64,000 nucleotides of DNA from an uncultured Desulfosarcina sp. (GCA_963674945.2 CAXXWQ010000003.1:608001-672000); one strand, 5' to 3'. Counted from the first letter of the stretch, positions 34,449 to 56,064 are shown. Numbers and translations are program-made. The notes: generated from the sequence alone by a model not told the origin.

Positions 34449-35708
34449 CTATATTTTGCGCCCGAACGCTCGATCCGCCAACGCCCGGTTGCGCGGCCGC
34501 ATGGTTCCGTCCGCTTGTTCCCTTCGCATCACCTGCTGAAACAGGCTGGACATTTTCATGCTCTGGGATTCGGTATGATAAAAGGACTCCCAGGCATGGG
34601 CCAACAGCTCCTGTAACCGCTGGGCAGACATATTCTTGGGTTGATACACCACCTGGTCCGCCGTATACCGGTTCCAGTCAAAGCTCACAATTCGATTCTG
34701 CCGCTTCAATTCTTCATACGCCCGCGTGTGGGGAAAGGGGGTAAGCACCGTGAATTCCGCCAGATCCAGCTCGATCTCCAGCAGAAAATCGATCAGCCGC
34801 AAAATGCTCTCCTCGGTATGATCGTCCAGCCCCAGCAAAATCGTGCCCTCGACGCCGATGCCGTGGTCGTGGTAGCGTCTGATACGCTCCCGTATGAAAT
34901 CCGATGTATTGAAAACCGCCTGGTAGACGTACCATGCACCGGCCTGGGCCGCCAGATCCAACACCTTTGCATCATTCTCGATGGGATGACAACACCATTT
35001 TTTCTTCAACGGAATCATCTCCGTAAAAAGCGCCGTCTCCCATTTTGTATCCTGGGCCAGTGAATTGTCCACGATAAAAAGCCGGTTATTGTCGATGGCC
35101 GCCATCTCCGCCACCGCCTTTTCGATGGGTCGGGGCCGAAATTTTCTCCCCCCCAAAAAGGAGACGCAGCAGGGGTAACAATTGAAGCGACATCCCCGGG
35201 ATGCGTGGACCAGATCCACCATCTGGATGCCGCGGTAGTTGTACAGCTCCCGGTTCAGAATATCCCGTCTGGCGTTTCCCACCGTTTCGATGGGTGGCGG
35301 ATCGGACAGGTAATCGTATCTTTTTTTTAGCCGACCGGCCCGAAGATCGGCAATCACACCCTCCATTCGACCTTCCGCTTCACCGAGGAAAACCGCGTCG
35401 GCATGCTGTTGGGTCTCATCGGCATGAAGCATGGTGGCGATTCCTCCGAAAATCACCGGAATCCCACGGGCACGATAACCATCGGCGATTTCCCATCCGC
35501 GTTTCACCTGGACAGTGAGCATCATGGAGATACCGACCACGTCCACCGGCGCATCCATGTCCAGATCGGACAGATTCTCGTCGACGAATTCCACATCCAC
35601 ATCCGACGGCAAAGTGGCTGCAAAGACAACCGGGCCATGGGGCGGAAGGTGAAATTCCGTCTGATACCGCAGTTTGGGCCAACGGGGGTATATAAGCGTA
35701 AACTTCAT
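34449..35708 (-). CDS. B12-binding radical SAM protein
   Basis: VIFGGI.AT (B12-binding domain); SRGCRFNCYPC; TPFPHT. Confidence 0.9.
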   Translation of the reverse strand: MKFTLIYPRWPKLRYQTEFHLPPHGPVVFAATLPSDVDVEFVDENLSDLDMDAPVDVVGISMMLTVQVKRGWEIADGYRARGIPVIFGGIATMLHADETQQHADAVFLGEAEGRMEGVIADLRAGRLKKRYDYLSDPPPIETVGNARRDILNRELYNYRGIQMVDLVHASRGCRFNCYPCCVSFLGGRKFRPRPIEKAVAEMAAIDNNRLFIVDNSLAQDTKWETALFTEMIPLKKKWCCHPIENDAKVLDLAAQAGAWYVYQAVFNTSDFIRERIRRYHDHGIGVEGTILLGLDDHTEESILRLIDFLLEIELDLAEFTVLTPFPHTRAYEELKRQNRIVSFDWNRYTADQVVYQPKNMSAQRLQELLAHAWESFYHTESQSMKMSSLFQQVMRREQADGTMRPRNRALADRAFGRKI

Positions 35709-35735
35709 GGAATCGAAACCTTATATAAATCCGGC

Positions 35736-36374
35736 TCAGGGAAGCAAAATCGCCTCAACCAGTGTCATATCCAGTTTGTAACCGTGGCGGGCTTTTGATG
35801 CAAGGGTCAATTTTTTCGCTACCCCACGCCCATCGACACCGCAGGCGACGACCATCCGCTCGGGGTCGTACTGCCGAATGTGCCAGATGTTGTCGTCTGT
35901 ATTGAAAACATCCACGATCCGGTCGTCATCGGTATGGTAACGGCACCCCCGTGCACCCTCGGGGAAAATGGCTGCCACGGGTTCGGATGTGGCCTTCGGT
36001 TCGAAGAACAGAAGGCGGAGATCCTGAATCAAGCCATCTGCAAAATCCGGATTTTCGAAGGGTCCGATTGCACGTTTGACTGTGATGCCGTCACCGGCCA
36101 CCGCTTCAAAAAGCACCATGCCTTCCAGGGTCATCAACACGCAGTGGATGGATCGCACCTTGGCGGACAAGACGACAACACCGGTAAACGTTGCCCGATG
36201 CCCTCCACCAAGATGGGCGTCGATGGTATGCACCAGTTGCCACCGGCCCGACGGAAAGATGGATCGACATCGGCTGTGGATGACCCGTTTGTCTCCGGTG
36301 TCCATGGGCGTAACGGCGGGAATGTGTGTGCAGGCCACGACCAGAAGGATCAGGGCCAAGAGGCTGCGGATCAT
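35736..36374 (-). CDS. Lipoprotein of the lipid cluster
   Basis: Lipobox VVAC; start overlaps the stop of the LolA-like gene. Confidence 0.75.
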   Translation of the reverse strand: MIRSLLALILLVVACTHIPAVTPMDTGDKRVIHSRCRSIFPSGRWQLVHTIDAHLGGGHRATFTGVVVLSAKVRSIHCVLMTLEGMVLFEAVAGDGITVKRAIGPFENPDFADGLIQDLRLLFFEPKATSEPVAAIFPEGARGCRYHTDDDRIVDVFNTDDNIWHIRQYDPERMVVACGVDGRGVAKKLTLASKARHGYKLDMTLVEAILLP

Positions 36375-36994
36375 TGCGCTTCCTCGAACAGGTGCGGATT
36401 CAGGTCCGGATTGATGCGCGTTTTTGTAAAGATCATCTTTGTGTACGCATCCTCGCTTTCGAAAATGAGCACCTGCTCGATCACACCCGGTGTGTCGGCC
36501 AATGTCAATTCGATTCGCTGTATCAGGCGTTTCATGCCGTCATCCTTGGGAATCAGTACGATTTCGTGTTCTCCCCGGATAGAAGCCGTGAACATGGGGC
36601 TGTCTTGAAACCGCCCGCCGAGCATGCCGCCGATTTCCGGCATCACGGATTGCATGGCCGTTAGATGGATGCCATGATCTTCCACCATCCGTTCACCGGT
36701 CTGGATGAACCGCCGTACTTCGCCATCTTTGGCAATCAGGACGCTTTTGACCGGTGAGGTGTATTCCCACCGCAGTGCATCGGGTTTTCGGTAACACAAG
36801 CGTCCCCTGGATACCAGCGGCCGGACCAATATCGGCAAGTGCTTCTCCTGTACGAAATCGGCACGAATGGCCTCGATCCCCTTGGCCGCATCGGCAATGC
36901 CGTCCCAGGTGTCGGCCCAGGCAAAACAGATACAGGGCCACAACAAAGAGAGGAAGACAATAAAACGCCCTCTTATTGTTTTGGAATTCAACAT
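36371..36994 (-). CDS. LolA-like lipid/lipoprotein carrier
   Basis: ADFVQEKHL..L..PLVSRG....KPD.LRWEY..P motif. Confidence 0.85.
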   Translation of the reverse strand: MLNSKTIRGRFIVFLSLLWPCICFAWADTWDGIADAAKGIEAIRADFVQEKHLPILVRPLVSRGRLCYRKPDALRWEYTSPVKSVLIAKDGEVRRFIQTGERMVEDHGIHLTAMQSVMPEIGGMLGGRFQDSPMFTASIRGEHEIVLIPKDDGMKRLIQRIELTLADTPGVIEQVLIFESEDAYTKMIFTKTRINPDLNPHLFEEAQ

Positions 36995-37144
36995 TGATGA
37001 AATTTTGAATTGCATTGAAAAATTTACCAGCTCTGAGTCCGCGAATAGAATAATTGCTGTCAATGAAACCTCGGGCGCTACCCCTACGACCGGAAGATGT
37101 TCGAACCGGTTCGGCGAGACACGCAATCTTCAGAAGCTTCTTGT

Positions 37145-37312: not shown

Positions 37313-37338
37313 ATTGGCCATTTCTGGATGGGCACAAG

Positions 37339-38076
37339 TTAGATCATGCCGCCGTTTACGGATATAACCTGCCCACAAACATACGAGGCATCGTCCGAGC
37401 AGAGAAACCGTACCACCCGTGCCACCTCCTCCGGTTTTCCCACCCGTGCCATGGGAATCAAGGCCTTGAGGTTGGTCAGCGGCAGATCCTTGATCATGTC
37501 CGTATCGATGAGCCCCGGGGCAACCACATTTACACGGATGCCCATCCGGGCAACCTCGGCAGCCAGGCTTCGGCTGGCACCGATGAGCCCCGCTTTCGCC
37601 GCACTGTAGTTGGCCTGTCCCCGGTTCGCCACAAGGCCGGATGCGGAAGCGATGGAAACCACATTTCCTTTTCGCTGACGGATCATCTTCTCGATGATGG
37701 GCCGGGTCACGTTGAAAAAGCCATCGAGCGTCGTGTCCACCACCCGGTTCCAATTATTCCGGGACATCATCAAAAAAAGACCGTCGGCGGTGACACCCGC
37801 ATTGTTGACCAGTACGTCAACCGTTTCGACGGAATCCAAAAGGTTCGTGAGGGCGTTGCTGGTCGCTTCCCCGTCGCGAACGTCGAATCCCAGGATGCGT
37901 CCCCCGCCACCTTCGGCTCGGACGGCCTCGATGGTTTTTTGGGCCCCTGCTTCGTCAGAATGGTAGTGGACCACCACATCGTATCCGGATCGGGCCATCT
38001 CTATACAAATGGCCCGACCGATGCCCTTGGAGCCGCCGGTTATCAGCGCGAGCGGCCTTTTCTCGTTTTCCCTCAT
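37339..38076 (-). CDS. fabG: 3-oxoacyl-ACP reductase
   Basis: TGGSKGIG, NNAG, YSAAK, VAPG.I.T.M and GQVISVNGG motifs. Confidence 0.93.
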   Translation of the reverse strand: MRENEKRPLALITGGSKGIGRAICIEMARSGYDVVVHYHSDEAGAQKTIEAVRAEGGGGRILGFDVRDGEATSNALTNLLDSVETVDVLVNNAGVTADGLFLMMSRNNWNRVVDTTLDGFFNVTRPIIEKMIRQRKGNVVSIASASGLVANRGQANYSAAKAGLIGASRSLAAEVARMGIRVNVVAPGLIDTDMIKDLPLTNLKALIPMARVGKPEEVARVVRFLCSDDASYVCGQVISVNGGMI

Positions 38077-38242
38077 TGATTTTTCCAACCTCGCTTTTAC
38101 CGGCCACCTAATTCGAAGAAAACCGGATTACTGAACATCGAACATCGAACGTTGACCGCTTCGAAAAAAAGCTACTGCCGATTGGGTGTCTCGCCGGACC
38201 GCTCCGAACCTCTTCGGGTCGCTCGGAAATGTCTACAGACGC

Positions 38243-38686
38243 TCATTCCGGATCACCATCCACCACCTGCAAAACCACTTCGGCCGCCAAACGACCGTCG
38301 ATGGATGCAGTCCCCGCGATTTCACGAAGGGTGTCGAATACGAAGGCGTTTTTCGCCGTCGTCGTAATGGCCGCCCCGGGATGGATGCCGGCTACATGAA
38401 ACGTCGCGCTCTTCACCCCCACCAGCCACCCCCGTGCCGCCGCCGCCTCGCCCCTGGTTTTCAGCCGGTGCAATCCGTTGTGCACACCCGAAGTCTGGGC
38501 CACCAACTCAACCAGTATCAGCGCATTGACGGCACCGTCCCGGAAAAGGGGCCAATCCCTTTTCGCCACGGACAGGGTCGTGGCCTGTTCATCGTCCAGA
38601 GATAGGATTTCATCCACCAGTAACATCCGACCGCGGTGGGGTAGCAGCAGGGAAGGGGGCAACGGATGCGATAGGTTTGTCGGCAT
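38243..38686 (-). CDS. Hotdog-fold 3-hydroxyacyl-ACP dehydratase subunit (ApeP-like)
   Basis: LLPHRGRMLLVD, ELVAQ and GWLVGV motifs. Confidence 0.8.
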   Translation of the reverse strand: MPTNLSHPLPPSLLLPHRGRMLLVDEILSLDDEQATTLSVAKRDWPLFRDGAVNALILVELVAQTSGVHNGLHRLKTRGEAAAARGWLVGVKSATFHVAGIHPGAAITTTAKNAFVFDTLREIAGTASIDGRLAAEVVLQVVDGDPE

Positions 38687-38782: not shown

Positions 38783-39082
38783 ATGCCCATGAACGACGCA
38801 CCGGCGGATCGATTTATCCATGAGCTGCGAATCAAGATCGTTGAAGCGTTGAACCTGCAAGATGTCTTACCAGAGGAGATCGACCCGGACGAACAGTTGG
38901 TGGGTGGACGATTGGGAATCGACTCCATCGATGTGCTGGAGATGGTGATGATGGTGGAAAAGGAGTACGATCTGACCATCGACAACAGGGAGTTGGGGGC
39001 ACAGGTTTTCGCTTCCATTCGTACCCTGTCCGCATTCATCGACGATCCAACGTCCGTCCGGCCCGTTGAAGGAGACGGATAA
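38783..39082 (+). CDS. Acyl carrier protein
   Basis: LGIDSIDVLE phosphopantetheine attachment site. Confidence 0.93.
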   Translation: MPMNDAPADRFIHELRIKIVEALNLQDVLPEEIDPDEQLVGGRLGIDSIDVLEMVMMVEKEYDLTIDNRELGAQVFASIRTLSAFIDDPTSVRPVEGDG

Positions 39083-39172: not shown

Positions 39173-40525
39173 ATGAAGATCCTTCTGATCTCTGCAAATA
39201 CACTCACGGCCCCATACCCGGTCTACCCCATCGGTCTGGACCACGTGGCCGCATCCATTCCAGACAGACATGCGGTGCAGGTCATGGACCTCAATACATT
39301 GGAGGGTTCTTCCCAACTGTCCGACGGCATTCGTGGGTTCGGTCCTGACCTGATCGGCATCTCCATTCGTAACATCGACAACACGGACAACACCGACCCC
39401 GTCGGATTCATGGAGGCCTACCGACAGGTGATGCAGAGGGTGAGAGGCGCATCCGAGGCGCCGGTGGTCTTGGGAGGAAGTGGCTTTACCCTGTTTCCCC
39501 AGCGGCTGCTGGCAGATCTGGCGGCCGATTACGGCGTCGTCGGCGAAGGCGAACGCCTGCGGCATCTGATCGAAGCGATGGAAACCGGCAAGGACCCACG
39601 CGGCCTCGTCGGCATCCTCCTTCCCGGCGAAGCGAAGGCCCCCTTTCCACCACCGCTTACCGATCATCGTCACCCCATACCGAGGCAATCGCCGTCCCAC
39701 CGATCCTGGTACATCGATCATGGCGCCATGCTCAATGTGCAGACCAAACGGGGATGTCCGTTTCGGTGCATCTACTGCACCTACCCACGCATCGAGGGAA
39801 GGCGCCTACGCCTGGTGGACCCCGATGAAGTGGCGCGAACGGCAAAAGACATCGAAGCGGCAGGTGCACGTTACCTCTATATAACAGACTCGTCCTTCAA
39901 TGCCGACGTCGAACATTCTTTGCAGGTGGCGCGTTCTTTGAAAAAAGCCGGTGTCACCATTCCCTGGGGGGCCTTTTTTACTCCCGGGGACCTGCCCCCC
40001 GGCTATTTCGAAACCTTGAAAGATGCGGGTGCAAAGCACGTAGAGTTCGGCACCGATGCCCTTTCCGATGCTGTTTTGCAGACCTATAAAAAACCCTTTA
40101 CGGTGGCGCAGGTCTTTTCCGCTCACGAAGCAGCCCTGTCAGCCGGTTGTCACGTGGCCCACTACTTTCTGCTGGGCGGGCCGGGGGAGAACATGAATAC
40201 GCTGGCCGAAACCTTACGAAATATCGAAAGGCTCGAGAAAACGGTTCTGTTTTTTTTCTGTGGCATGCGCGTATATCCCCACACGGCGCTGTTTCGTCGG
40301 TGTGTGGAAACGGGAAGGCTGGAACGCGGCGCGGACCTGCTGGCACCTTTTTTTTATCAATCGAACGGCATAAAGACCGATACCATTTCAGCGCTCGTCG
40401 TGGAAAAAGCCCGGGGCCGCGCCAATTGGATCATCGGTGCCGGAGGGGAAAAGACCGCCGTCACGCTTCGTCGCATGTATGAAAAAGGTTTTTCAGGTCC
40501 GTTGTGGGAGTATCTCATACGCTGA
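39173..40525 (+). CDS. Lipid-biosynthesis B12-binding radical SAM protein
   Basis: PYPVYPIGL, SIRNIDN, LGGSGF, QTKRGCPFRCIYCTYP and GGPGE motifs. Confidence 0.9.
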   Translation: MKILLISANTLTAPYPVYPIGLDHVAASIPDRHAVQVMDLNTLEGSSQLSDGIRGFGPDLIGISIRNIDNTDNTDPVGFMEAYRQVMQRVRGASEAPVVLGGSGFTLFPQRLLADLAADYGVVGEGERLRHLIEAMETGKDPRGLVGILLPGEAKAPFPPPLTDHRHPIPRQSPSHRSWYIDHGAMLNVQTKRGCPFRCIYCTYPRIEGRRLRLVDPDEVARTAKDIEAAGARYLYITDSSFNADVEHSLQVARSLKKAGVTIPWGAFFTPGDLPPGYFETLKDAGAKHVEFGTDALSDAVLQTYKKPFTVAQVFSAHEAALSAGCHVAHYFLLGGPGENMNTLAETLRNIERLEKTVLFFFCGMRVYPHTALFRRCVETGRLERGADLLAPFFYQSNGIKTDTISALVVEKARGRANWIIGAGGEKTAVTLRRMYEKGFSGPLWEYLIR

Positions 40526-40590
40526 TGGGAGAATGATGTTATTTTGAATGAAATTTTCCGTAAATGGCAAAAACCGGGTTAGAAAATCCA

Positions 40591-40962
40591 ATGACATTGT
40601 GGTATAAATACACGTTTACTGATCGGCAAACGAATGGCAAGGCTACGGCCCGTGCCGTCGTGCCTTCGGATTCTCCCTGGTTCGACGGCCACTTTCCCGA
40701 AGACCCCGTACTGCCGGGTGTCGCCCAGTTGGCCATGGTTCATGACCTTTTGTGCCGGATGCACCGCCAATCTTCGCCGGTCCTGAAACTGCGCCGGGTT
40801 CGATTCAAACAGATGATTCGCCCCGACCAGGAACTGACCCTTACGGTGGAAGCCTGCGACGAGGCGGGCGATCATCGATTTCGCATAAGTGATTCCAACG
40901 GACTCATCTGCAGTGGGATGATGGTACTGGCGGAAAAAGCGCGGGAACGAACGGCGCCTTGA
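40591..40962 (+). CDS. FabA/FabZ-like dehydratase (ApeI-like)
   Basis: WFDGHFPEDPVLPGVAQL and VRFK..IRP motifs. Confidence 0.85.
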   Translation: MTLWYKYTFTDRQTNGKATARAVVPSDSPWFDGHFPEDPVLPGVAQLAMVHDLLCRMHRQSSPVLKLRRVRFKQMIRPDQELTLTVEACDEAGDHRFRISDSNGLICSGMMVLAEKARERTAP

Positions 40963-41008: not shown

Positions 41009-41269
41009 ATGTCAGCCCAAACCGACAAAATCATTCAACACATTGCACAAATCATGATCGATGAACTCAAGCTGGAGGATGTCACCCCGGAGACCTTCGA
41101 CCCGGATATCGACCTGGTGGATGAAGTGGGCATCGACAGCATGGACCTGGCTACGGTGGCCCTGGTGCTGCGGGATGAATACGCCGTTCGCATCGACGAG
41201 GATGATTATCCCAAATTGACGACAGTACGGTTGATCGGTGAGTATATACAACAAAAACTGGCCGCATAG
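41009..41269 (+). CDS. Acyl carrier protein
   Basis: VGIDSMDL; acidic 86-aa protein. Confidence 0.93.
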   Translation: MSAQTDKIIQHIAQIMIDELKLEDVTPETFDPDIDLVDEVGIDSMDLATVALVLRDEYAVRIDEDDYPKLTTVRLIGEYIQQKLAA

Positions 41270-41277
41270 AATTATTC

Positions 41278-42342
41278 ATGGATGAACGAAAAACCTGGAA
41301 ATTTTCTGACCTGATCGCCGACCCTGAAGTCCGGGACCGGTGGGAAACGGTGCGCCGGTATTTTTTCCTGCGCGAGTCCACCTACGACATGACACGCCGG
41401 TGCAATATCCGCTGCAATGGGTGTTACTTTTACGAAGGCGAAAAGCAAAAGACCCGGGACAATACCAACCCCGACGATTGGCGAAAACACATTCGAAAAG
41501 AAAAGGCCCGCGGCATCACCTTCGTCGTGTTGGCAGGCGCAGAACCATCCCTGGTGCCCGAGCTGTGCCGGGTCTGTTATGACGAGATCCCCCTGGGGTG
41601 CATCGCAACCAACGGTCTCGTGCCCATTGCCGCATCCATCGGATACCGCATTCATGTCTCCGTTTGGGGAAATGACGAGACCAGCCTCGCCACGCGAAAC
41701 GCAAAAGATATGCTTTCCCGACAAATCGCCAATTACGCGGGCGATCCCCGGGCCACATTCGTATATACCTTTACCCGCCACAACATCGACCAGGCCGAAT
41801 CGGTGGTTCGCACACTTTCCGACCACGACGCCACGGTAACTTTCAACATGTTCAGCTCACCGGTGGGATACACCGGCAGTCTGCGTCACACCCCCCTCAG
41901 CCTGGCGGATACGCGACGGACCATGCTGCGACTGCTGGAACGATACCCGGATACGGTCCTGTTTTCATGGTACAGCGCCATGGCACACACCCATGAAAAG
42001 GGACTGCACGAACTGTTCGGATGCAGCTACCCCCGCCAAAACCCCAGCAAGGACCTGGGCCTCGGCCGTTCCTTTCGTCAATACCGCACCGATCTGACGT
42101 GGGATCGGGATGCGGCCTGCTGCGTTCCGGACACCGATTGTAACGACTGCCGTCATTACGCGGCGGCAAGCGCCATTGTCACGGCCCGACTGTTTCGCCA
42201 CGCCATCGACCCGGATACCTTTCGCTCCTGGCTCGACTTCGTGGACACCTACCTGGCCGTGTGGGTAAAAGGCTATCAAAAGGGCGACAACCTCTGCGAC
42301 AAAATCGTTGCTCCGCCTGGCGTGGAACTCACGGCCAATTGA
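41278..42342 (+). CDS. Radical SAM protein
   Basis: CNIRCNGC, GAEP and C-terminal CC...DC..C motifs. Confidence 0.88.
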   Translation: MDERKTWKFSDLIADPEVRDRWETVRRYFFLRESTYDMTRRCNIRCNGCYFYEGEKQKTRDNTNPDDWRKHIRKEKARGITFVVLAGAEPSLVPELCRVCYDEIPLGCIATNGLVPIAASIGYRIHVSVWGNDETSLATRNAKDMLSRQIANYAGDPRATFVYTFTRHNIDQAESVVRTLSDHDATVTFNMFSSPVGYTGSLRHTPLSLADTRRTMLRLLERYPDTVLFSWYSAMAHTHEKGLHELFGCSYPRQNPSKDLGLGRSFRQYRTDLTWDRDAACCVPDTDCNDCRHYAAASAIVTARLFRHAIDPDTFRSWLDFVDTYLAVWVKGYQKGDNLCDKIVAPPGVELTAN

Positions 42343-42355: not shown

Positions 42356-43354
42356 ATGAAAACCGTCAGCTCCCTCTTGGATGAACACTGGTACGCCAGG
42401 TACAAGCGGATCTCCAAGCTCAACATCAGAAGCTCCATCTACGATGTCACCAATCGATGCAATTTGCGATGCAAGGGGTGCTTCTTCTTCTCTTCCGGCG
42501 AACACCGGGTAGCCAAGGAGGAAATGGATATCACCCGATGGGAAGCCTTCGTGGACGAGGAGGTGGCCCGCGGCGTGAACCTGGCCATTTTAATCGGTGG
42601 TGAACCCACATTGTGCCTGGACCGGGTCGAAGCATTCTACAAACGGCTGCCCACCTTTTGCGCCACCAACGGCCTCATCAAGGTGCCACGGGACCGCCTT
42701 CCCGACATGATGGTGGGCATCAGTCTCTGGGGGGACGAGGAAGACGAGAAGCTGCTCAGGGGAAAAGACGCCTTTTCCATCTCCAGCAAAAACTATGAGG
42801 GAGACCCGCACACCTACTACCTGTATACCATCACCCCCAGGCAGCTTGGAAAGACCGAAAAAATCATCCGAAAGATACGAAACGCGGGCCTCAAGGTCCA
42901 CATGCAATTGCTCTCCAACGACGAAGGCGTAGACGGATTTAACTGGCGACCCGATGAGTTGGTCCAGATCCGCCAGGAGATGGACGAGGTACTCGACCGC
43001 TACCCGGAGACGGTCGTCTCCTGCAAGTACTACCATGAGATCATCACGACGGGAAAGATGCTCGGCAGATCCTTTGGTTGGATGGAATGCCCGTCGGTGA
43101 CAGCTCCCTTGGACAAACGTGATCCCAAACCGAAGCGACTGGCCAACTTCATCCGATGGGCTTCGGATCTTGAGACCATGCACCGATGCTGCACCTCCGA
43201 GACCCGGGACTGCGGCACCTGTAAGGACGGCGCGGCCCACATGAGTTGGGTGATGGTCAACAAACGCGCCCACATGAAGAGCACGAAGGATCTTTGCAAC
43301 TGGATCGAAATTTACGAAATGTTCGCCAAGCTCTATCAGTTTATTCCCTGGTAA
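42356..43354 (+). CDS. Radical SAM protein (paralog of the upstream gene)
   Basis: CNLRCKGC, GGEP and C-terminal CC....DC..C motifs. Confidence 0.9.
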   Translation: MKTVSSLLDEHWYARYKRISKLNIRSSIYDVTNRCNLRCKGCFFFSSGEHRVAKEEMDITRWEAFVDEEVARGVNLAILIGGEPTLCLDRVEAFYKRLPTFCATNGLIKVPRDRLPDMMVGISLWGDEEDEKLLRGKDAFSISSKNYEGDPHTYYLYTITPRQLGKTEKIIRKIRNAGLKVHMQLLSNDEGVDGFNWRPDELVQIRQEMDEVLDRYPETVVSCKYYHEIITTGKMLGRSFGWMECPSVTAPLDKRDPKPKRLANFIRWASDLETMHRCCTSETRDCGTCKDGAAHMSWVMVNKRAHMKSTKDLCNWIEIYEMFAKLYQFIPW

Positions 43355-44687: not shown

Positions 44688-44737
44688 AAATATGGGGGAT
44701 TATTTATTGTTTGAGATAAATCGTGATTAAAAACGAA

Positions 44738-44841
44738 GTTTTAAGTGTTACGTGGTTAAGTGTTAAGTTAAGGTATGCTGCCTATTTAGATAAAATCGAT
44801 TACAATCCTTCCCTTAACACTTAAAACTTAATACTTAACAC
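44738..44841. repeat. Inverted pair of heptamer arrays (gtgttaa ... ttaacac) around an AT-rich core
   Basis: gttttaa gtgttac gtggttaa gtgttaa ... ttaacac ttaaaac ttaatac ttaacac. Confidence 0.8.
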
Positions 44842-48149: not shown

Positions 48150-48727
48150 CAACGATTGCGATGTTTGTCGCCATGTTCGCCATCGCCTATGTGGCAGGTT
48201 CAATCAACTTTTCCATCCTGGTGTTTCGTCTCACGGGCCGTGACGATCCACGAAACCACGGCAGCGGCAATCCCGGTGCCACCAATGTCTACCGGCAGGC
48301 GGGACTCGGCTGGGCCGCGGCGGTTCTGCTCCTGGACATGGGGCGTGCCGTGGCCGTGGCCCTTTTGGCCAGGGCCAATCTACCGTTCTGGCAGGTTCCC
48401 TGGGTGGGATTGGGACTGATTCTGGGCAATCGCTTTCCCTGTTTTCACAGGTTTACGGGGGGAAAGGGGGTGGCCAACTATCTGGGATTCACCCTGGCCA
48501 TCGCGCCGCTTTCCGCCGGCATCGGGGTGCTTGCCTGGGCGGGCGCGCATTTGATCTGGCGAACGCCTTTTCTTTCATCCTTTGCCATGGTCTTTGTGCT
48601 GGCCGCGGGAACCGCTATGGGAGGATCGGGCCAATGGCAGGAAACCGTCGGCATCGGAGCGACCGTTCTTTTCATCGTGGCCTGCCACCACAGGAACATC
48701 CGGCAACGATGGAGACGGCAAGGGTAA
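48146..48727 (+). CDS. plsY: Glycerol-3-phosphate acyltransferase (PlsY family)
   Basis: GSGNPGATNVYR, GGKGVA and H..NI motifs. Confidence 0.9.
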   Translation: MTTIAMFVAMFAIAYVAGSINFSILVFRLTGRDDPRNHGSGNPGATNVYRQAGLGWAAAVLLLDMGRAVAVALLARANLPFWQVPWVGLGLILGNRFPCFHRFTGGKGVANYLGFTLAIAPLSAGIGVLAWAGAHLIWRTPFLSSFAMVFVLAAGTAMGGSGQWQETVGIGATVLFIVACHHRNIRQRWRRQG

Positions 48728-49117
48728 TCCACAGTGAGCCATGAGCCGCGCCATGCCCTGGCAGACGGCCCAGCGAAAAAAAATCCAGGAGTATTTGGCG
48801 CCGGCCAGGTACATGCCCGCCAAGAATACGAGGTGGGAAATTCCATAGGCCAACGGTCCGCCCACGACGACGATGGCGGCCTGCTGATAGTGAACGGCGG
48901 CGATGCCGAGCAGGCCGATGAGGGGCCATCCCAGAAGATAGCTCAGGCCGATGGCCGATACGCCAAGGAGCACACGAAGATCCGGAGGCCGTCGAAAGGC
49001 GGAGAGATCCGCCCGGTCGGCAATGGCAGATCGCACGAAACCAACCTTCGATATACGAAAAACGATGGGTTTTGCCAGAGAGGACAAAATGTCCGGGATA
49101 TTTTTCCAGGCGTCCAT
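48575..49117 (-). CDS. Hypothetical membrane protein (3' end overlaps plsY)
   Basis: Two to three hydrophobic segments (SYLLGWP, GGPLAYGISHLVFLAG); fills the gap between plsY and the GT25 gene. Confidence 0.6.
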   Translation of the reverse strand: MDAWKNIPDILSSLAKPIVFRISKVGFVRSAIADRADLSAFRRPPDLRVLLGVSAIGLSYLLGWPLIGLLGIAAVHYQQAAIVVVGGPLAYGISHLVFLAGMYLAGAKYSWIFFRWAVCQGMARLMAHCGLPLPSPSLPDVPVVAGHDEKNGRSDADGFLPLARSSHSGSRGQHKDHGKG

Positions 49118-49261
49118 GAACACTCGTGAGTTACGGTTCGATCGCAGCAGTCAGCTTTCAGCAAATGGCTAATCGCTCCAGTACGAGAAAATAACGCACA
49201 ATGGATAAAAATCAAAGCCACAAAACAGTCGGCCGCCCCAAACCGGCCATTGAATCGTAAG

Positions 49262-50008
49262 ATGCAAGAATTGTCCGCCACCGACAACCGGACCGGCCGA
49301 CTCTCCGAAATCTGGGGACGAATCGACAGGATTTTCTGTATCTCCCTGAAAGAGAGAAAGGATCGTCAGGAGAGCGCCGGAAAGCAATTCGCCCGGGCAG
49401 GGCTTTCGGGCCATGTGGACTTTTTCCTGACCCGGCGCCACCCCGACGATTGTGAACAGGGGATCTTCGAGTCCCATCAGCACTGCCTTGCACGTGCCCT
49501 GGAAAAAGATGCGCGGCACGTCCTCATCTTCGAAGACGATGTAATTTTCTCCCGCATCGACCCGGTCCGTCTTTCTGCCGCCATCGATGCATTCATGGAC
49601 CGGGATGACTGCCAGATTCTCTTTCTGGGATGCCTGTGTGAAAAAAGCCGGAAATCGGACATGCCCGGCATTCGAAAAATCCGATACGCCTGCCTGGCCC
49701 ACGCCTACCTGGTCAAGGAGAAGCTGGCCAGACGAATATGCGGACAGTCCTGGGAAAAAACGCCCTATGACAACATGCTGCGTCAGTGCATGGACTGGGC
49801 CTGGGTCATGTTTCCGTCCATTGCCTTTCAGAGCAATTCGCCTTCGGACAACACCCGGCACGCTCTTCTGGAAAACGTCCGGCGCCTCTTCGGCGGCCTG
49901 AAAACCATCCAGATTGTCAACGAACGCTACCACCGGTTCCGGGCACCGATCATCGCGTTTCACCTGTTGATCGTTTCCGCGCTGATCCTGTGGATGGTCT
50001 TGCCATGA
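49262..50008 (+). CDS. Glycosyltransferase family 25-like protein
   Basis: FCISL..R.DR, G...SH, LIFEDD and AHAY motifs; C-terminal TM helix. Confidence 0.82.
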   Translation: MQELSATDNRTGRLSEIWGRIDRIFCISLKERKDRQESAGKQFARAGLSGHVDFFLTRRHPDDCEQGIFESHQHCLARALEKDARHVLIFEDDVIFSRIDPVRLSAAIDAFMDRDDCQILFLGCLCEKSRKSDMPGIRKIRYACLAHAYLVKEKLARRICGQSWEKTPYDNMLRQCMDWAWVMFPSIAFQSNSPSDNTRHALLENVRRLFGGLKTIQIVNERYHRFRAPIIAFHLLIVSALILWMVLP

Positions 50009-53000
50009 AACGCAACCGTTCCATCAACATCACCATGCTGGCAAGTGTGATCATCGTCGCCGCCATTCTCCTTTTCGTCGCCCTCTCCCGCCTTACCATC
50101 GAAACGGACATCGTCGCCAGCCTGCCCACGGATGACCCGGTAATCGCAGACGGCGTCCACATCTTCGAAAACAATCCCGTCAAGGATCAGATCGCCATCG
50201 ACATCGGCAACGACACGGGAGACCGCAAGGCCCTTATGGCCGCTGCAACGCTCGTCGAGACGCATCTATTGAAAAGCGATCTGTTCGAAAAAGTCGGCTA
50301 TGAGCCCGTTGCCCGGGGGCTGGCCGCGCTGTCGGATCATGTCATGAACAGCCTGCCCGTTCTGTTTGCCGCCGACGAACTGCAAACGAAGGTGGCGCCC
50401 CTGCTTTCCGAAGCCGCCATCGGAAAGTCACTGGCCGACGCACGAGACCGGCTCTACCAGATGGACGGCATCGGCCAGGCGTCGGCCATATCCGCCGATC
50501 CGCTGGGATTTTCCCATCTCCTCCTTTCCCGTTTGACCGCGCTGAATCCCGCTCCGGGCGCATCCATCTCCAAGGGACACATTCTATCGGCCGACGGACA
50601 CCATCTGCTGGTGCTGGCCACGCCCGCCGGATCGGGAACGGACACGAAGCTGGCCAGGGATCTGACCCGATTTTTCCAGGACCTGGAATCGGCCGTGGCC
50701 CTTCGATGCGGCGACGATATACGCCTTACACCCACCGGCGCCTTCCGGGCGGCCCTGGACAACGAAACCATCGTCCGGTCCGACGTGAACCGGGCCATCG
50801 TGTGGGCCACCGTGGGCATCGGCCTGCTTCTGCTCTCGGCCTTTTCCCGCCCCCTCATGGGCCTTCTCGCCCTTCTTCCGGCCCTTGCCGGGACGGTCAT
50901 GGCCCTCTTTTTCTTTTCCCTGGTCCACGACAGCATCTCCATCATGGTGCTGGGTTTCGGCGGCGCCGTCATCTCCATCACCGTCGATCACGGCATCGCC
51001 TACATGCTCTTTGTGGATGGTGGGGGCGCCTGGAACCAAAAAGCGGCATCCCGGGAGATTCGGGCCGTGGGACTGCTGGCGGTTCTCACCTCCGTCGGTG
51101 CATTCACCGTGCTGGCCTTTTCCGGTTTCGCCGTCTTCGAACAGCTGGGCTGGTTTACCGCATCGGGGATCGGCTGTGCCTTTGCATTCGTCCACCTCGT
51201 GCAACCCAGGCTCCTGATCACATCCGAGAGGGCCACGACGCCTGCCCGGAAACGCTTTTCCATGATCGTGGACCGGCTGGCATCCACCGGTATCGTCGGG
51301 CTGACACTGGCCGCTCTCCTGGCAGTGGTGCTGGCCTTTTTTATTCGTCCCCATTTCAACACCGATCTTACGGCCATGAACACGGTCAGCGAAAAGACGC
51401 GCGCCGCCGACCGGTTGATGGCCGACGTCTGGGGCGATATCTTCTCCAATGTCTACCTGATGAACGAAGCGGACGATCCGGCGGCACTTGCAGAAAAAAA
51501 TGACAGGATACAGCGTGTGCTGGAAAACGAATCGACCGCCGGCCGCATCGGCCCCGTGGTCACCCCCGCTCTTTTCTTCCCAGGACCGGACCGCCGGGAA
51601 AAAAATCTTACCGACTGGCGCCGGTTCTGGACCCGGGAGCGGACCCGGCGTGTCATCGAGACGGTGAAACGAGAAGGCCGGGCTCTTGGATTTGCCGATA
51701 CGGCCTTCGAACCATTTTTCGACCGCCTGACCCATCCAACGGTGAAAAATTTCAGCATGGGACCTGCAATACGGGCCCTGATGGGCATCGCCCACGATTC
51801 GTCCGACGGAAAGTGGCGGCAGGTCACCCGGGTCCTCCCCCGCGACACCTTCAATCATCAGGCGTTTTACGACCGCGTGTCCGCCTCATGTGCCGTGTTC
51901 GACCCCGTACTCTTTTCCCGGCACATGGGGGACCTTCTTTTCTCCACCTTCATGAAGATGCTGCTGATCATCGCGGCAAGCCTGATTGTCCTGATCTCTC
52001 TCTTTTTCGTTGACGCGGGGCTCGTACTCATCTCTTTGCTGCCCCTTTCCTTTGCCTTCGTCTGCACCCTGGGCACCCTGGGAATCATGGACCGGCCCCT
52101 GGACATCCCGTCCCTCATGCTGTCGGTGGTCATCCTGGGAATGGGCGTTGATTATACCTTGTTTCTGGTTCGGGGCTACCAGCGCTACCGGCGTTTCGAC
52201 CATCCGGGATTCGCCGTGGTCCGAACGGCGGTGGCCATGGCCGCGGGTTCCACCCTCATCGGCTTCGCCGTGCTGGTGGGTGCCGATCATGACCTTCTCA
52301 AAAGCGCGGGATGGATCTGTCTTTGCGGCATCGGCTACTGTCTGGCGGGCGCCTTTCTGATCCTTCCCCCATTTTTACGGAAACGATTCGAAGCGCCCGT
52401 GGACGACACGGGTGGAATCGAGAGACGATACAGGAACATGGAGCCTTACCCGCGCCTCTTCGCCCGGTTCAAACGGCGGTTGGACCCCCTGTTCGACGAA
52501 ATTGCCCATCTGGTGCCGGCGGACAACACTCTTTCCCATATCCTGGACATCGGTTGCGGCTACGGTGTTCCGGCCTGCTGGATGGCCGAACGCTTTCCCG
52601 GGGCCGTGATCCACGGCATCGAACCGAAACCGGAACGGGTACGGGTGGCGGCCCTGGCCCTCGGCGACCGCGGCCAAATCGTGGTCGGCGCGGCCCCCGA
52701 CCTGCCGCCGGTGGATGCGCCGATGGACCTGGCCACCTTGTTGGACATGAGCCACTACCTGACGGATCGTCAGTTGGAGACGACGCTGGAGTGCATCCGC
52801 AGCCACCTGTCGCCCAAAGGAACGCTGATCGTTCGATCGGTGATGCCCCCTTTTGCCCGGCCCCACTGGACCTGGTACCTGGAACATGTCAAACTTCGCA
52901 TCAATGGAATTCGTGTTTGCTATCGGCGCCCGGATCAGGTAGAAAAAATTTTTCGTAAGTGCGGATTCGAGGTCGTACAGAGCCTTTCTTCAGGAAAGCG

Positions 53001-53040
53001 TGGAGACATGTGGTGGCAGGTGGCAAGACCGGCGAAGTAA
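50005..53040 (+). CDS. MMPL/RND-family exporter fused to a C-terminal class I SAM methyltransferase
   Basis: Two TM bundles (ITVDHGI, GMGVDY); C-terminal ILDIGCGYG and LLD..HYL. Confidence 0.88.
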   Translation: MKRNRSINITMLASVIIVAAILLFVALSRLTIETDIVASLPTDDPVIADGVHIFENNPVKDQIAIDIGNDTGDRKALMAAATLVETHLLKSDLFEKVGYEPVARGLAALSDHVMNSLPVLFAADELQTKVAPLLSEAAIGKSLADARDRLYQMDGIGQASAISADPLGFSHLLLSRLTALNPAPGASISKGHILSADGHHLLVLATPAGSGTDTKLARDLTRFFQDLESAVALRCGDDIRLTPTGAFRAALDNETIVRSDVNRAIVWATVGIGLLLLSAFSRPLMGLLALLPALAGTVMALFFFSLVHDSISIMVLGFGGAVISITVDHGIAYMLFVDGGGAWNQKAASREIRAVGLLAVLTSVGAFTVLAFSGFAVFEQLGWFTASGIGCAFAFVHLVQPRLLITSERATTPARKRFSMIVDRLASTGIVGLTLAALLAVVLAFFIRPHFNTDLTAMNTVSEKTRAADRLMADVWGDIFSNVYLMNEADDPAALAEKNDRIQRVLENESTAGRIGPVVTPALFFPGPDRREKNLTDWRRFWTRERTRRVIETVKREGRALGFADTAFEPFFDRLTHPTVKNFSMGPAIRALMGIAHDSSDGKWRQVTRVLPRDTFNHQAFYDRVSASCAVFDPVLFSRHMGDLLFSTFMKMLLIIAASLIVLISLFFVDAGLVLISLLPLSFAFVCTLGTLGIMDRPLDIPSLMLSVVILGMGVDYTLFLVRGYQRYRRFDHPGFAVVRTAVAMAAGSTLIGFAVLVGADHDLLKSAGWICLCGIGYCLAGAFLILPPFLRKRFEAPVDDTGGIERRYRNMEPYPRLFARFKRRLDPLFDEIAHLVPADNTLSHILDIGCGYGVPACWMAERFPGAVIHGIEPKPERVRVAALALGDRGQIVVGAAPDLPPVDAPMDLATLLDMSHYLTDRQLETTLECIRSHLSPKGTLIVRSVMPPFARPHWTWYLEHVKLRINGIRVCYRRPDQVEKIFRKCGFEVVQSLSSGKRGDMWWQVARPAK

Positions 53041-53110: not shown

Positions 53111-53195
53111 CAGGAGCCAGGAGCCAGAATTCAGGAGCCAGAATGAATCGAGCCGAAGGCGAATACCTGATTCTGGATTCTGATTCTGGATTCTT
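53111..53195. repeat. Inverted pair of heptamer arrays (caggagc/cagaat ... gattctg) around a short gccgaaggc core
   Basis: caggagc caggagc cagaatt caggagc cagaatg ... gattctg gattctg attctg gattctt. Confidence 0.75.
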
Positions 53196-53279
53196 GTAAC
53201 AATTATACGGCAGAGCCAATGAACGCTGACCTGGCCCAGAGGACCAGGTTTTCTACACCCCAATAAAATAGTCCTCTTG

Positions 53280-54167
53280 ATGCGACAAAGTAATCGACAC
53301 AGGTGGTATGGTTTCCTCTCCTTGGGCGAACGAACCGGTTTGCTGGCCTTCGGGGCGGCCCTGTCCCTGGCCGCCGTGGATATTCGCCTGGCCACCATTC
53401 CCCTTGCGCTGTTTCTCATGTGTTCGTTTCTCGCGCCCTTTTTTCCCTGGACCGGGTTCTTTTTCCCCGTCATCAGTCGGGGCAACACCAAGGCGCCCAT
53501 GGTGGCCCTCACCTTCGACGATGGTCCGGATCCGGTGACAACCCCCATGTTACTGGATCTGCTGTCCATCTATCGCGTTCCCGCCACGTTCTTCGTCACC
53601 GGCAGGCGCGTACAGGCATATCCGCACCTGGTCCGGCAGATCATCGAACATGGACATACCATCGGAAACCACAGCTATCACCACGAACAATATCGCATGT
53701 ACCTGCTTCCTTCCGTGCTGATGCGGGAAATCACCGATACCCAGGAGATTTTGGCCCGATCGGGCGTCGTTCCGGTGGCCTTCCGCCCGCCGGTGGGCGT
53801 CACCACGCCGGCCATGGGCGCCGTATTGGACGAGAAAGGGATGATCACCGTCAATTTCAGCTGCCGTGCATTCGACTGGGGCAATCGACACATCCACCGG
53901 CTGGCGAACAAGATCCTTTCTAAAATTCAAGGGGACGACATCGTGATGCTCCACGATTCCCTCCCTTCAGATCCGGCGCACCTGGATCGTTGGATCCGGG
54001 AGGTGAGAAAAATTCTTGCGGGCATATCCAAAAAGGGGTTCACCGTCGTACCGCTGGAAACGCTCATCGGCCGGCCGGTGATGAAAAAAAATGTTGTGCC
54101 ACAAGAAAAAGGTGAATCAACAATCTTTGGGACTGCGGTTTCAACACCCAAGCCCGAAAGCCGGTAA
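53280..54167 (+). CDS. Membrane-anchored polysaccharide deacetylase (NodB/CE4)
   Basis: LTFDDGP, GNHSYHH, FRPP.G and IVMLHD motifs. Confidence 0.92.
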   Translation: MRQSNRHRWYGFLSLGERTGLLAFGAALSLAAVDIRLATIPLALFLMCSFLAPFFPWTGFFFPVISRGNTKAPMVALTFDDGPDPVTTPMLLDLLSIYRVPATFFVTGRRVQAYPHLVRQIIEHGHTIGNHSYHHEQYRMYLLPSVLMREITDTQEILARSGVVPVAFRPPVGVTTPAMGAVLDEKGMITVNFSCRAFDWGNRHIHRLANKILSKIQGDDIVMLHDSLPSDPAHLDRWIREVRKILAGISKKGFTVVPLETLIGRPVMKKNVVPQEKGESTIFGTAVSTPKPESR

Positions 54168-54262
54168 AATGCATGCAAAATGATTGTAATTTAACTTCAT
54201 ATCGCTTGCATTTTTATGAAAATTACGGTAGCCTTCATTCAATCTCCAAAAAGGAGGCCCCC

Positions 54263-54511
54263 ATGCCCTCACTTCAAGTCAGAGAATTGCCGGAACCGAT
54301 TTATCGGCTTCTTCAGGAAGAGGCCCGAAAAGAACATCGGAGTTTTGCCCAACAGGCCATCGTTACCCTTGCCAAAGGACTGGGCATTACTGAAAACCCT
54401 AAAAAACGTCGTGCCGAAGTTTTGCGGAACATTTTGGAGAACCCGGTTGAGGCAAAGGCGGACCAGTTGATCGATCCTGTTTCTCTTGTCCGGGAGGACA
54501 GAGAACGATGA
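54263..54511 (+). CDS. RHH antitoxin (FitA/VapB-like)
   Basis: MPSLQVRELPE..Y..L...A....RS; REDRER tail overlaps the toxin start. Confidence 0.85.
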   Translation: MPSLQVRELPEPIYRLLQEEARKEHRSFAQQAIVTLAKGLGITENPKKRRAEVLRNILENPVEAKADQLIDPVSLVREDRER

Positions 54512-54918
54512 TCATTGTCCTCGATGCCAGTGCAGCCGTAGAAATTGTGCTTCAACGGGAAAACGGCAAACATTTTCTGCATCACATCGAAAGTGCGCAG
54601 TGGGTTTTGGCACCCGGATTGTTTGTCTCCGAAGTCACGAACGTCTTCTGGAAATATTTCAGGTTCGGGAATCTTTCCATGGAACAATGCGAAAAGGGAA
54701 TAGATTTTTCTGTTCATCTGCCCGATGAATACTGCGACGATAAAACAATGTACAAAGAAGCCTTTTCACTGGGATGTCAAACCGGAAAACCGGTCTATGA
54801 TATGTTCTATGTTGTTCTTGCCCGTCGCAACAACGGACATTTGATGACGCTGGATCGGACACTCGCCGACGTAGCCGATAAAAACTCGGTCAGGATTGTC
54901 ACGCCTCCCACCACGTGA
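54508..54918 (+). CDS. VapC-family PIN-domain toxin
   Basis: IVLDASA, E..N, YD..Y..LA and L.TLD motifs. Confidence 0.92.
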   Translation: MIIVLDASAAVEIVLQRENGKHFLHHIESAQWVLAPGLFVSEVTNVFWKYFRFGNLSMEQCEKGIDFSVHLPDEYCDDKTMYKEAFSLGCQTGKPVYDMFYVVLARRNNGHLMTLDRTLADVADKNSVRIVTPPTT

Positions 54919-54993
54919 GCAATCCGAAACTGGAAACCGCAATCACCGACCACCCGCAGAGCAGGTGGTTTGATGAAGCCCCCTTGAAAGGGG

Positions 54994-56064
54994 CTAAAAT
55001 CCAGACTTTGCGTGAGATTGTTTTTCTTCGTAATTTCTCCAGCACAGAGGATCGGAGGCGAGGTAATCGCCGGTCATCTGGAAGGCGGCCCCGCGGCAGC
55101 CGTAGCACCCATCGGCAAGTTCGCAGCTCCTGCACGGACCCTTTATCGTGTTGCGGTAGTCCTTGAGCGCTTTGAGCACCGGGCTCTCTTTGATGATGGC
55201 GGAAAGGGATTTGTCGCGGACGGAGCCTATGGAAATGGTCACCCCCACGCAGGGCATCACGTCGCCGTTGGAGGTCACCAGGCAGGAAAACTGGTGGCGC
55301 AGGCAGCGGTTGCCCACCAAGGGGGGCTGCGGTATCCATTCCCGGCCATACCGCTCTTTGTCCATTCTGGCCAGGGTCTCGAAAAGCCGTTTCAGGTCGG
55401 GTGGGTCCACGTCCAGCCATCGGTTTTCCAGGGCATTGGCCTGGGGGGTGATGATTTCGAAATAGGGGGCGATGCCCCGATCCCGGAGCCAGCACCAGAG
55501 TTGTGGCAGTTCCTGGATATTTTGTTTGCAGATGATGGTGCTCACGGCGAAAAAGGCCTCTTCGGAAGGGTACCCCGCACGCCGTAAATGGTCCAGGGCC
55601 GCTGCGATGATTCGGCCGGCGTCTTTTCTCCCCGACAGGCGTGCCTGCAGATCGCCGTCGAAGGTGTTCATCTTCAGCACCATGCGGACCCTTCGCGCAA
55701 ACAGCCATTTGGCGAATTCTAAGGTGATGCCGCTTCCATTGGTGAACATCTCCACCTCCATCTCCCGGGCCTGGATGAAGGTGATCATTTCCCTGATTTG
55801 CGGATAGATGCTCGGTTCGCCCCCCAGGATAATGATCCGGCGCGCCCCCAGGCTCTTGGCCTGCATCAGCACATCCTGGATCTCGGTAACCGTCAGTTCC
55901 CCGTCCAGATAGTCTGCTTCGGGCACATAGCAGTAGGGGCAGTTGAAATTGCAGCGCCGGCTGAATTCCACCTCCATGGTCAGCAGCCGGTTCTTGGCCG
56001 CCGTTCGGGCAACAATTTCTCGATCGAACGCGAATTCAAACGACTGGCCGGTGCAGCTTCCCAT
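54994..56064 (-). CDS. Radical SAM/SPASM-domain protein
   Basis: CNFNCPYC and GGEP; C-terminal C...G.V.PC...CRSC....CYGCR...C. Confidence 0.92.
   Translation of the reverse strand: MGSCTGQSFEFAFDREIVARTAAKNRLLTMEVEFSRRCNFNCPYCYVPEADYLDGELTVTEIQDVLMQAKSLGARRIIILGGEPSIYPQIREMITFIQAREMEVEMFTNGSGITLEFAKWLFARRVRMVLKMNTFDGDLQARLSGRKDAGRIIAAALDHLRRAGYPSEEAFFAVSTIICKQNIQELPQLWCWLRDRGIAPYFEIITPQANALENRWLDVDPPDLKRLFETLARMDKERYGREWIPQPPLVGNRCLRHQFSCLVTSNGDVMPCVGVTISIGSVRDKSLSAIIKESPVLKALKDYRNTIKGPCRSCELADGCYGCRGAAFQMTGDYLASDPLCWRNYEEKQSHAKSGF

Follow-up and report, generated by a model that had tools for sequence, protein, structure and literature searches.

Which lipid is built by a gene cluster that combines fatty-acid- and polyketide-type chain assembly with five radical S-adenosylmethionine (SAM) enzymes? 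We addressed this question for a 64,000-nucleotide stretch of DNA from an uncultured Desulfosarcina sp. (GCA_963674945.2 CAXXWQ010000003.1:608001-672000; the window hereafter, with positions counted along it), in which a type II fatty acid synthase/polyketide synthase (FAS II/PKS II) cluster occupies positions 34449-56082. A preliminary description had read this cluster as a complete pathway in which one acyl chain is built and modified without oxygen, loaded onto glycerol-3-phosphate by a dedicated PlsY, glycosylated and exported. Comparison with related genomes bore out a conserved FAS II/PKS II lipid system that includes radical SAM tailoring as well as genes for glycosylation and MMPL/LolA export, whereas the completeness of the window, the single chain and the dedicated PlsY did not survive. 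By analogy with known pathways, we lean towards the view that a gene set dispersed over four genomic sites builds an aryl-polyene-lipid-like glycophospholipid with up to three chains, which would be tailored by radical chemistry without oxygen and exported to the outer membrane.

A conserved lipid system spread over four sites

Every gene named in the preliminary description was present as an intact open reading frame (ORF), and each of the five radical SAM genes that it had counted encoded a CxxxCxxC motif. A leftward arm on the minus strand consists of B12a (34449..35708), a 419-aa B12-binding radical SAM protein of no curated family that is ~75% conserved but scores below Pfam cut-offs (B12-binding 26.9 vs 32.1, Radical_SAM 21 vs 29.5); a lipoprotein (35736..36374) that is likely DUF3261/ApeN-like, a lead only, with DUF3261 occurring in 11-17% of members of look-alike clusters; a LolA-like chaperone (36371..37126); a FabG ketoreductase (37339..38088); and an ApeP-like hotdog dehydratase (38243..38686). 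Diverging from this arm across a 100-base AT-rich gap, a rightward run on the plus strand begins with the acyl carrier protein (ACP) ACP1 (38783..39082; ApeE-like, DSID motif), the B12 radical SAM gene B12b (39173..40525) and an ApeI-like hotdog dehydratase (40564..40962), and continues with ACP2 (41009..41269; DSMD motif), the twitch-type radical SAM gene RS1 (41278..42342), its paralog RS2 (42356..43354; 29%), the FabF-like ketosynthases (KS) KS1 (43431..44687) and KS2 (44904..46169), a YbgC/FadM-type thioesterase (46171..46653), a PKS-type double-hotdog dehydratase fused to a phosphopantetheinyl transferase (46650..48149; the dehydratase stands alone in many relatives) and PlsY (48146..48727). 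The run ends with a GT25 glycosyltransferase that has a C-terminal membrane anchor (49250..50008), a fusion of an MMPL/RND exporter with a class I methyltransferase (50005..53040; no Pfam match for the MMPL domain, and NCBIfam RND/MMPL matches all below cut-off) and a membrane-anchored NodB-type deacetylase with intact motifs (53277..54167). Both ketosynthases had been credited with intact Cys-His-His triads, which we confirmed (C167/H310/H345 in KS1, C169/H313/H350 in KS2) and found to be conserved in orthologs.

The proposed synteny with relatives also held. RS2 relatives were encoded on 243 stretches of a species-genome collection, and we kept the best 80 of the 243 as loci (loci are numbered with L, genomes with G and contigs of the present genome with C), which include records labelled Desulfobacterales, Desulfobulbales, Syntrophales and Spirochaetota (labels of metagenome-assembled genomes as given). 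RS1 adjoins RS2 in 78 of the 80, and the order ACP2-RS1-RS2-KS1-KS2-thioesterase-dehydratase is conserved in 32 of the 36 loci with full flanks; three of the four exceptions reflect insertions that move genes beyond the flank, and one lacks ACP2. Some relatives carry a U32-family protein and a methyltransferase inserted beside this core (L026 5356-7415; L192 16089-17967). Median ortholog identities are 81% for RS2 (over the 80 loci), 74% for ACP2 and 68% for RS1, and the nearest named relatives of RS2 are Desulfosarcina records (86-90%). At the level of whole genomes, RS2 is carried by 26 of a set of 61 close genomes and by 24 of 300 from across the phylum. The gene set is widespread among bacteria that avoid oxygen.

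The window holds the main part of the system but not the full pathway that it had been taken to hold, as three other sites of the genome carry further components. Relatives have a single ~45 kb cluster, wholly contiguous in G047 and G052, and the present genome (98.7% complete) has the same set split over four sites. In G047 and G052 the left arm is adjoined by a thioesterase, a Dak2-DegV protein, a GT2 glycosyltransferase, a lipid-A-type acyltransferase, ACP3, KS4, a PlsC-type acyltransferase and the B12-enzyme gene B12c, and at the right end an AMP ligase faces a SPASM radical SAM gene (54994..56082 on the minus strand of the window). In the present genome the ACP3/KS4/B12c block lies on contig C2 at 68.5-77.8 kb and the AMP ligase at C3:1312 kb. 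The three outlying sites hold a third ACP, more ketosynthases, two acyltransferases, GT2, Dak2-DegV, the AMP ligase and a sixth radical SAM gene, most of them contiguous with the cluster in relatives. Of the 61 close genomes, 24 have KS4, 23 have Dak2-DegV and 18 have the SPASM ortholog, and each of these genomes is one of the 26 RS2 carriers. We rejected the idea that the SPASM gene is unrelated to the cluster, because its orthologs occur only in RS2 carriers and pair with the AMP ligase in relatives: in seven of eight relatives examined the gene is divergent from this ApeH-like ligase, which is located elsewhere in the present genome.

Between ACP1 and B12b, 30 of the 38 loci that have both genes encode a 720-aa fusion of a KS with a chain length factor (CLF). 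The fusion is missing from the present genome, which has a separate KS and a triad-less partner at C4:3175-3177 kb, behind a FadL gene. Eight carriers have the fused form (G052 matches the fused query by construction) and 16 others, including the present genome, have the split pair, but never both. Exactly one form is found in 24 of the 26 RS2 carriers (the two with neither are genomes 86% and 60% complete), and none of the 35 non-carriers has either; kin in these counts are not independent of one another. The split pair is therefore likely to be an in-trans replacement of the fusion.

Homology argues that the system is an aryl-polyene-lipid (APEL) chassis with three ACP/ketosynthase/acyltransferase sets and six radical SAM enzymes, because for 12 of the 18 Ape proteins of E. 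coli CFT073 the best match in the genome falls within the four sites. These are ApeR (41%), ApeQ (48%, FabG), ApeO (40%), ApeE (41%, ACP1), ApeJ (as halves), ApeD, ApeH and ApeK and, more weakly, ApeI, ApeL (the LolA-like chaperone, E 1e-3; LolA2_flexi 95.7 vs a cut-off of 125), ApeM (the MMPL fusion) and ApeP. Among the best solved relatives of the fused KS are 7f28_B and 6qsp, which we take to be ApeO structures, and 6qsr_B, presumably ApeP, is among those of the ApeP-like dehydratase. In a small set, ApeC found the fused KS of relatives (E 3.5e-8), and the full-length triad-less KS is likely a stand-in for an ApeC-type chain length factor. The resemblance to aryl-polyene clusters that the preliminary description had seen in the export and dehydratase set was thus real but drawn too narrowly, as the chain-building core is Ape-like too; the cluster is nevertheless not orthologous in its entirety to any characterised aryl-polyene cluster.

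A patchwork of separable modules, each with a lipid of its own (a pigment lipid of aryl-polyene type and, independently, a modified fatty acid for bulk phospholipids), clustered by history and with PlsY as a housekeeping gene, would fit the shuffled gene order outside the core block, the loss of individual modules, the spread over four sites and the survival of the sole PlsY after cluster loss. We place this explanation on the unlikely side, because in the 61 genomes the separate sites occur only in company with RS2 and because ACP3-KS4-acyltransferase is interleaved with the RS1/RS2 block in the distant carriers L191, L192 and L194.

Proposed chain assembly and loading

APEL combines glycerol phosphate and GalNAc with three chains, namely an aryl polyene attached to the sugar, a conjugated one at sn-2 and a saturated one, and distinct ACPs have been proposed for its two special chains (bioRxiv 10.1101/2020.12.19.423268). 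From gene content, motifs, synteny, the co-occurrence of the four sites and Ape homology, all read directly, we assigned chains on the model of the Xenorhabdus APEL pathway. Chain A would be started on ACP1 by the ApeH-like ligase, extended by the KS/CLF pair with FabG and the ApeI- and ApeP-like dehydratases, modified by B12b and moved onto the sugar by an ApeJ-like acyltransferase; it would be a polyene, because the cluster lacks an enoyl reductase gene. Chain B would be made on ACP3 by the ApeR-like KS4, beside which B12c lies, and would reach glycerol sn-2 via an ApeD-like acyltransferase. For chain C, KS1/KS2 and the PKS-type dehydratase would do the building on ACP2, and RS1 and RS2 would then alter the chain. 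The thioesterase would free it, the fatty-acid-kinase-like Dak2-DegV protein would phosphorylate it, and PlsY would transfer it to glycerol-3-phosphate. Completion of the head group would fall to GT2, GT25, the deacetylase and the methyltransferase. In place of a single acyl chain, the three ACP/KS sets point to up to three.

PlsY takes acyl-phosphate as its substrate, and Dak2 and DegV domains form a fatty acid kinase. The genome has three Dak2-domain genes, and we found no match to PlsX in it, which makes a route from thioesterase to kinase to PlsY plausible for chain C. PlsY cannot be called dedicated to the cluster, as it is the sole plsY of the genome (one PF02660 match; G046 alone, of the 61 genomes, has two) and is retained in cluster-free congeners, where it lies between AMP nucleosidase and AMP ligase.

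Several observations weigh against this three-chain scheme. PlsY is kept in 29 of 30 congeners with or without the cluster and lies within the flank of 20 of the 80 cluster loci, many loci having none; because it survives cluster loss and is absent from many cluster loci, chain C may bypass it. No match to ApeA, ApeC or ApeG was found in the genome (A and G at E<=0.05), ApeN is only a lead, ApeB and ApeF have their best matches outside the system, and ApeB gave no match to the fused methyltransferase. An ammonia-lyase is clustered in some relatives only; the genome's own member of that family, on C1, is unlinked and 32% alike, and we did not assign it to the pathway. The modules can also be found apart, as RS1/RS2 loci without the left arm exist, and so do islands with the B12 radical SAM family TIGR04072 and without RS1/RS2 (seven genomes above cut-off), so that the parts may serve separate lipids. 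Finally, the RACo part of the AMP ligase, described below for congeners, is truncated in the present genome (L179 8059-10602, on C3; 847 vs about 1070 aa).

The RS1/RS2 pair

No curated family model fits RS1 or RS2. In clustering at 50% identity RS2 forms a single full-length cluster, its relatives lying at 25-36%; a PDB sequence search with RS2 returned nothing better than E 0.007, an Atlas search returned generic radical SAM clusters only, and no characterised member of the RS1/RS2 family was found in a literature search that most subscription papers fell outside. A 724-aa protein (P0137) considered as a fused RS pair was rejected, being a docking-domain/thioesterase/RS fusion.

The CxxxCxxC motif and a Cys-rich C-terminal domain are invariant in orthologs of both proteins (C249, C281-C282, C288 and C291 across 64 aligned RS1 orthologs; C245, C278-C279, C286 and C289 in RS2), and the predicted model of RS2 (pLDDT 93.7), from which the fold matches derive, has a twitch/SPASM fold. 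BlsE (Z 18.0, rmsd 3.7, 258 aligned) and SkfB (Z 17.8) tied as its best matches, DesII ranked as well, and lipoyl synthase folds reached Z 11 vs 18 for the twitch enzymes. Like BlsE, SkfB and anSME (Z 16.5-18), the model combines a partial barrel with a Cys-rich C-terminal domain; unlike these enzymes, with which identity is <=18%, the pair has an acyl carrier as its substrate context. Four of the C-terminal Cys would suffice to fill an auxiliary cluster, as they do in dehydrogenases such as BtrN and anSME. Three of the C-terminal Cys columns are retained in 49-50 of 52 distant family rows, and a fifth Cys in 37 of the 52. Our tentative reading, held with less than even confidence, is that RS1 and RS2 oxidise the ACP2-bound chain without oxygen, by desaturation or dehydrogenation, via a fully Cys-ligated auxiliary cluster.

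Relatives of the pair occur in other contexts. A set of 80 metagenome loci comprised 21 RS1/RS2 orthologs and 59 lone distant copies. In a count drawn from crude ORF calls, short contigs and related loci, which tells against relying on it for our reading, 12 of 33 neighbours of lone copies were acyltransferases (seven) or oxygenases (five), vs one of 46 control ORFs; under a wider definition (PTA, AAT) the control holds four acyl-transfer genes among the 46. Neighbours were picked by script and required a Pfam match at E<=1e-8, and control ORFs lay >4 kb away; the count omits six hand-added ORFs with matches (two of them acyltransferases), the plasmid rows and locus L149, the control omits five L114 ORFs, and 13 of 80 script-picked neighbours (near-duplicates or doubtful ORFs) fell outside the scan. 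A TPR-acyltransferase family stands beside lone copies at six more loci, with weak scores, and a Methylomagnum plasmid has the order ACP-TauD-RS-NRPS (nonribosomal peptide synthetase). Plasmid RS copies in Alteromonas, Burkholderia and Tistrella accompany a PaaA-like diiron protein and a hotdog protein; this cassette recurs on Alteromonas, Enterobacter, Burkholderia and Tistrella plasmids (L085 19189-21544, L086 14267-17073, L087 13584-18963) and has as neighbours Tn3 genes in Alteromonas and, in Burkholderia, a chlorinase/adenylation cluster.

Lone relatives also lie beside hydroxylase-type oxygenases and surface-glycan genes, which, together with the TPR-acyltransferases, the top rank of BlsE and the presence of DesII among the fold matches, would suit a redox-neutral role as BlsE/DesII-like dehydratases, isomerases or decarboxylases, with a hydroxylated acyl-ACP or the sugar as substrate, or a role as accessory electron or cluster donors. 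Such roles seem rather unlikely to us, as the ties among SkfB, anSME and BlsE folds are uninformative on function and RS1/RS2 stand between ACP2 and KS1, apart from the sugar genes.

The closest interpretable relatives pose a challenge to oxidation of the ACP2-bound chain, because they favour sulfur chemistry over it. In a Planctomycetota-centred sample of 401 genomes, six lone RS2 relatives (29-33% identity, 181-206 bits vs 130 for RS1 vs RS2) lie in lipoate-assembly/sHdr-like operons with GcvH-like, lipoate ligase, LipS1/LipS2-like, TusA, DsrE and Hdr genes (20 proteins from five of the six loci were scanned, most with scores below curated cut-offs). In all six genomes (L210-L215) the RS2-like gene directly follows LipS2-like genes, an arrangement of which we found no mention in the accessible part of PMC10332631. 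RS1 and RS2 might accordingly insert sulfur into the ACP2-bound chain as a LipS1/LipS2-like pair and yield a thia-, thioether or dithiol lipid; their hosts are largely sulfate reducers, and LipS1/LipS2 offer a two-enzyme precedent on a carrier-bound octanoyl chain (accessible part of PMC10332631). Like LipS1/LipS2, RS1/RS2 are a radical SAM pair placed to act on a carrier-bound acyl chain, and RS2 relatives sit in such operons, but unlike them RS1/RS2 fit neither family model: NF053742 and NF053743 matched neither protein (E<=0.001), nor any of three RS2 relatives (E<=1e-12). The lower fold scores of lipoyl synthases point away from sulfur insertion as well, the four to five conserved C-terminal Cys suggest that there is no open iron site, the lipid cluster showed no sulfur-carrier gene, and LipS1/LipS2 already perform the insertion in lipoate operons, where the RS2 relative may be accessory. 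We therefore judge sulfur insertion unlikely.

Because lone relatives adjoin acyltransferases, oxygenases and lipoate-assembly genes, the family contexts point to chemistry on carrier-bound acyl chains. The bolder proposal that RS1/RS2 represent a so far uncharacterised family of twitch enzymes that edit acyl groups on carriers, and that the product belongs to a new class of outer-membrane glycophospholipids with three chains and with rings or sulfur bridges made by radical chemistry, strikes us as doubtful.

B12 enzymes, flanking elements and known lipid systems

Of the five radical SAM proteins encoded in the window, B12b alone passes the TIGR04072 cut-off (393 vs 360 bits), with the members from RS1/RS2-free islands in the same order scoring 540-670 bits. 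Those islands carry homologs of B12a (59-61%) and B12b side by side on the same APE-like chassis. RACo is an ATP-driven reductive activator of corrinoids. In congeners, including cluster-free ones, the AMP ligase carries fused 2Fe-2S and RACo domains (L171 8679-11888, L176 12133-15348), which fits methyl transfer by B12a, B12b and B12c, and the B12 enzymes are most likely C-methyltransferases.

The preliminary description had also pointed to ladderane synthesis, a link for which the B12 enzymes and the KS/CLF pair speak and RS1/RS2 do not. In the 401-genome sample the RS pair was found only in the Planctomycetota-labelled genome at its centre, and the 30 other TIGR04072-positive genomes (anammox members not marked) were without RS2. 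The best solved relative of the split KS is 9s5h_B (348 vs 323 bits for the next, a modest margin in a ranking by bit score), and the two 9s5h chains are the first and second best solved relatives of the KS/CLF pair. Residues C165, F203, S296-A297-H298, H335 and M337 of Brocadia amxFabF2 fall on 9s5h_B at a constant offset, with one listed residue off by one, and from these residue numbers we infer that 9s5h is the anammox amxFabF2/amxFabFmut dimer (accessible part of bioRxiv 10.64898/2026.05.19.726425). The partner of the split KS is triad-less and has Glu at the second His, as in kuste3606.

Membership of B12b in TIGR04072 and the resemblance of the split KS and its partner to amxFabF2 and kuste3606 would both be expected if the radical enzymes cyclised or cross-linked a polyene into small rings, giving a ladderane-related or other ring-bearing lipid; L051 has the order ACP-KS/CLF-phytoene-dehydrogenase-like-B12RS of anammox cluster I, and the fifth conserved Cys of the RS family could be an H donor. 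We consider ring formation improbable nonetheless. No RS1/RS2 pair turned up in any of the 30 other TIGR04072-positive genomes, the amxFabF2 margin is modest, and the window has no phytoene-dehydrogenase-like gene (the best match in the genome to the L051 query is 23%; such a gene is present in some relatives). In Desulfotalea, whose genome has a syntenic island, ladderanes went undetected, according to the accessible part of PMC2649909. In the accessible parts of the respective reports, E. coli expressing Kuenenia genes formed no new fatty acids (PMC4790861), and the ladderane-type clusters of non-anammox phyla are listed as of unknown function (PMC9902471).

Within the cluster, two features had been absent from the preliminary description. 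A small membrane protein of no known family is encoded on the minus strand at 48575..49123 and travels with the cluster in 26 of the 80 loci, and a FitA-like antitoxin and PIN toxin pair (54173..54918, plus strand) sits between the deacetylase that ends the rightward run and the convergent SPASM gene. The pair is an insertion, matched in none of the 80 related loci, and is not part of the pathway; other insertions fill this gap in relatives. REP-like intergenic inverted or short tandem repeats occur in the KS1/KS2 gap (44727-44838) and before the deacetylase (53111-53196). A DDE transposase gene (57067-58470), upstream of rubrerythrin and the SPASM gene, lies where relatives hold the AMP ligase and may mark a rearrangement. 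We rejected the AMP nucleosidase gene at 33545-34330 as a cluster member, as it flanks the cluster in only four of the 80 loci and persists after cluster loss. Farther away, the window contains type II secretion/MSHA-like pilus genes (8178-22652; secretin, ATPase, PilC-like protein and pilins with laminin G domains) and a CRISPR array (61658-63271; 25 copies of a 32-base repeat with a period of 64-68 bases), and at C4:123-130 kb the genome has a large PKS-like gene, possibly for a Pfa-type synthase, that encodes four FabA-type domains and lies near a KS.

The system offers six radical SAM candidates on an ACP-based line that occurs in 24 of 300 genomes of the phylum and in named cultured species (L001, L002, L020). 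APEL provides a template for a product search, cluster-free congeners are natural controls, and organisms amenable to pure culture carry a KS/CLF pair that closely resembles the anammox dimer. In sediments the lipid could serve as a biomarker of sulfate reducers, and, if it were a three-chain lipid with rings or sulfur bridges, culturable sulfate reducers would become a proxy for anammox-type lipid chemistry.

The cluster is a conserved variant of the aryl-polyene-lipid/TIGR04072 island type, a class of island in print since 2009, to which we add a map of the four sites, the exchange of one KS/CLF form for the other, the corrected status of PlsY, the RACo fusion and the settings in which the RS family occurs. 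It shares with anammox cluster I (ACP, FabZ, FabF2, FabFmut, PDH-like, B12 RS) an active KS with a triad-less partner, fused in relatives and unlinked here, where, unlike in cluster I, the pair has its place next to a FadL gene and not in the window. With the islands of Kuenenia stuttgartiensis and Desulfotalea psychrophila, which we compared from their published descriptions (accessible parts of PMC2649909 and PMC4790861), it has in common a TIGR04072 B12 radical SAM enzyme, multiple FabF paralogs with a triad-less partner, an acyl ligase, an MMPL-like protein, a deacetylase and a glycosyltransferase; it differs from them in the added ACP2-RS1-RS2-KS1-KS2 block and in having no phytoene-dehydrogenase-like gene, and the RS1/RS2-free islands look closer to the island described in 2009 (accessible part of PMC2649909). 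Like the ape/APEL clusters of E. coli CFT073 and Xenorhabdus doucetiae (accessible part of PMC8253772), the system has the twelve Ape homologs listed above (ApeJ as two genes), a KS/CLF, two dehydratases, RND and LolA export and no enoyl reductase in the cluster. Unlike them, it belongs to anaerobic hosts, has no ApeA, ApeG or ApeB ortholog that we could find, and adds a third ACP with two active ketosynthases of its own, a PKS-type dehydratase, six radical SAM genes, GT25, a deacetylase, Dak2-DegV, PlsY and a third acyltransferase.

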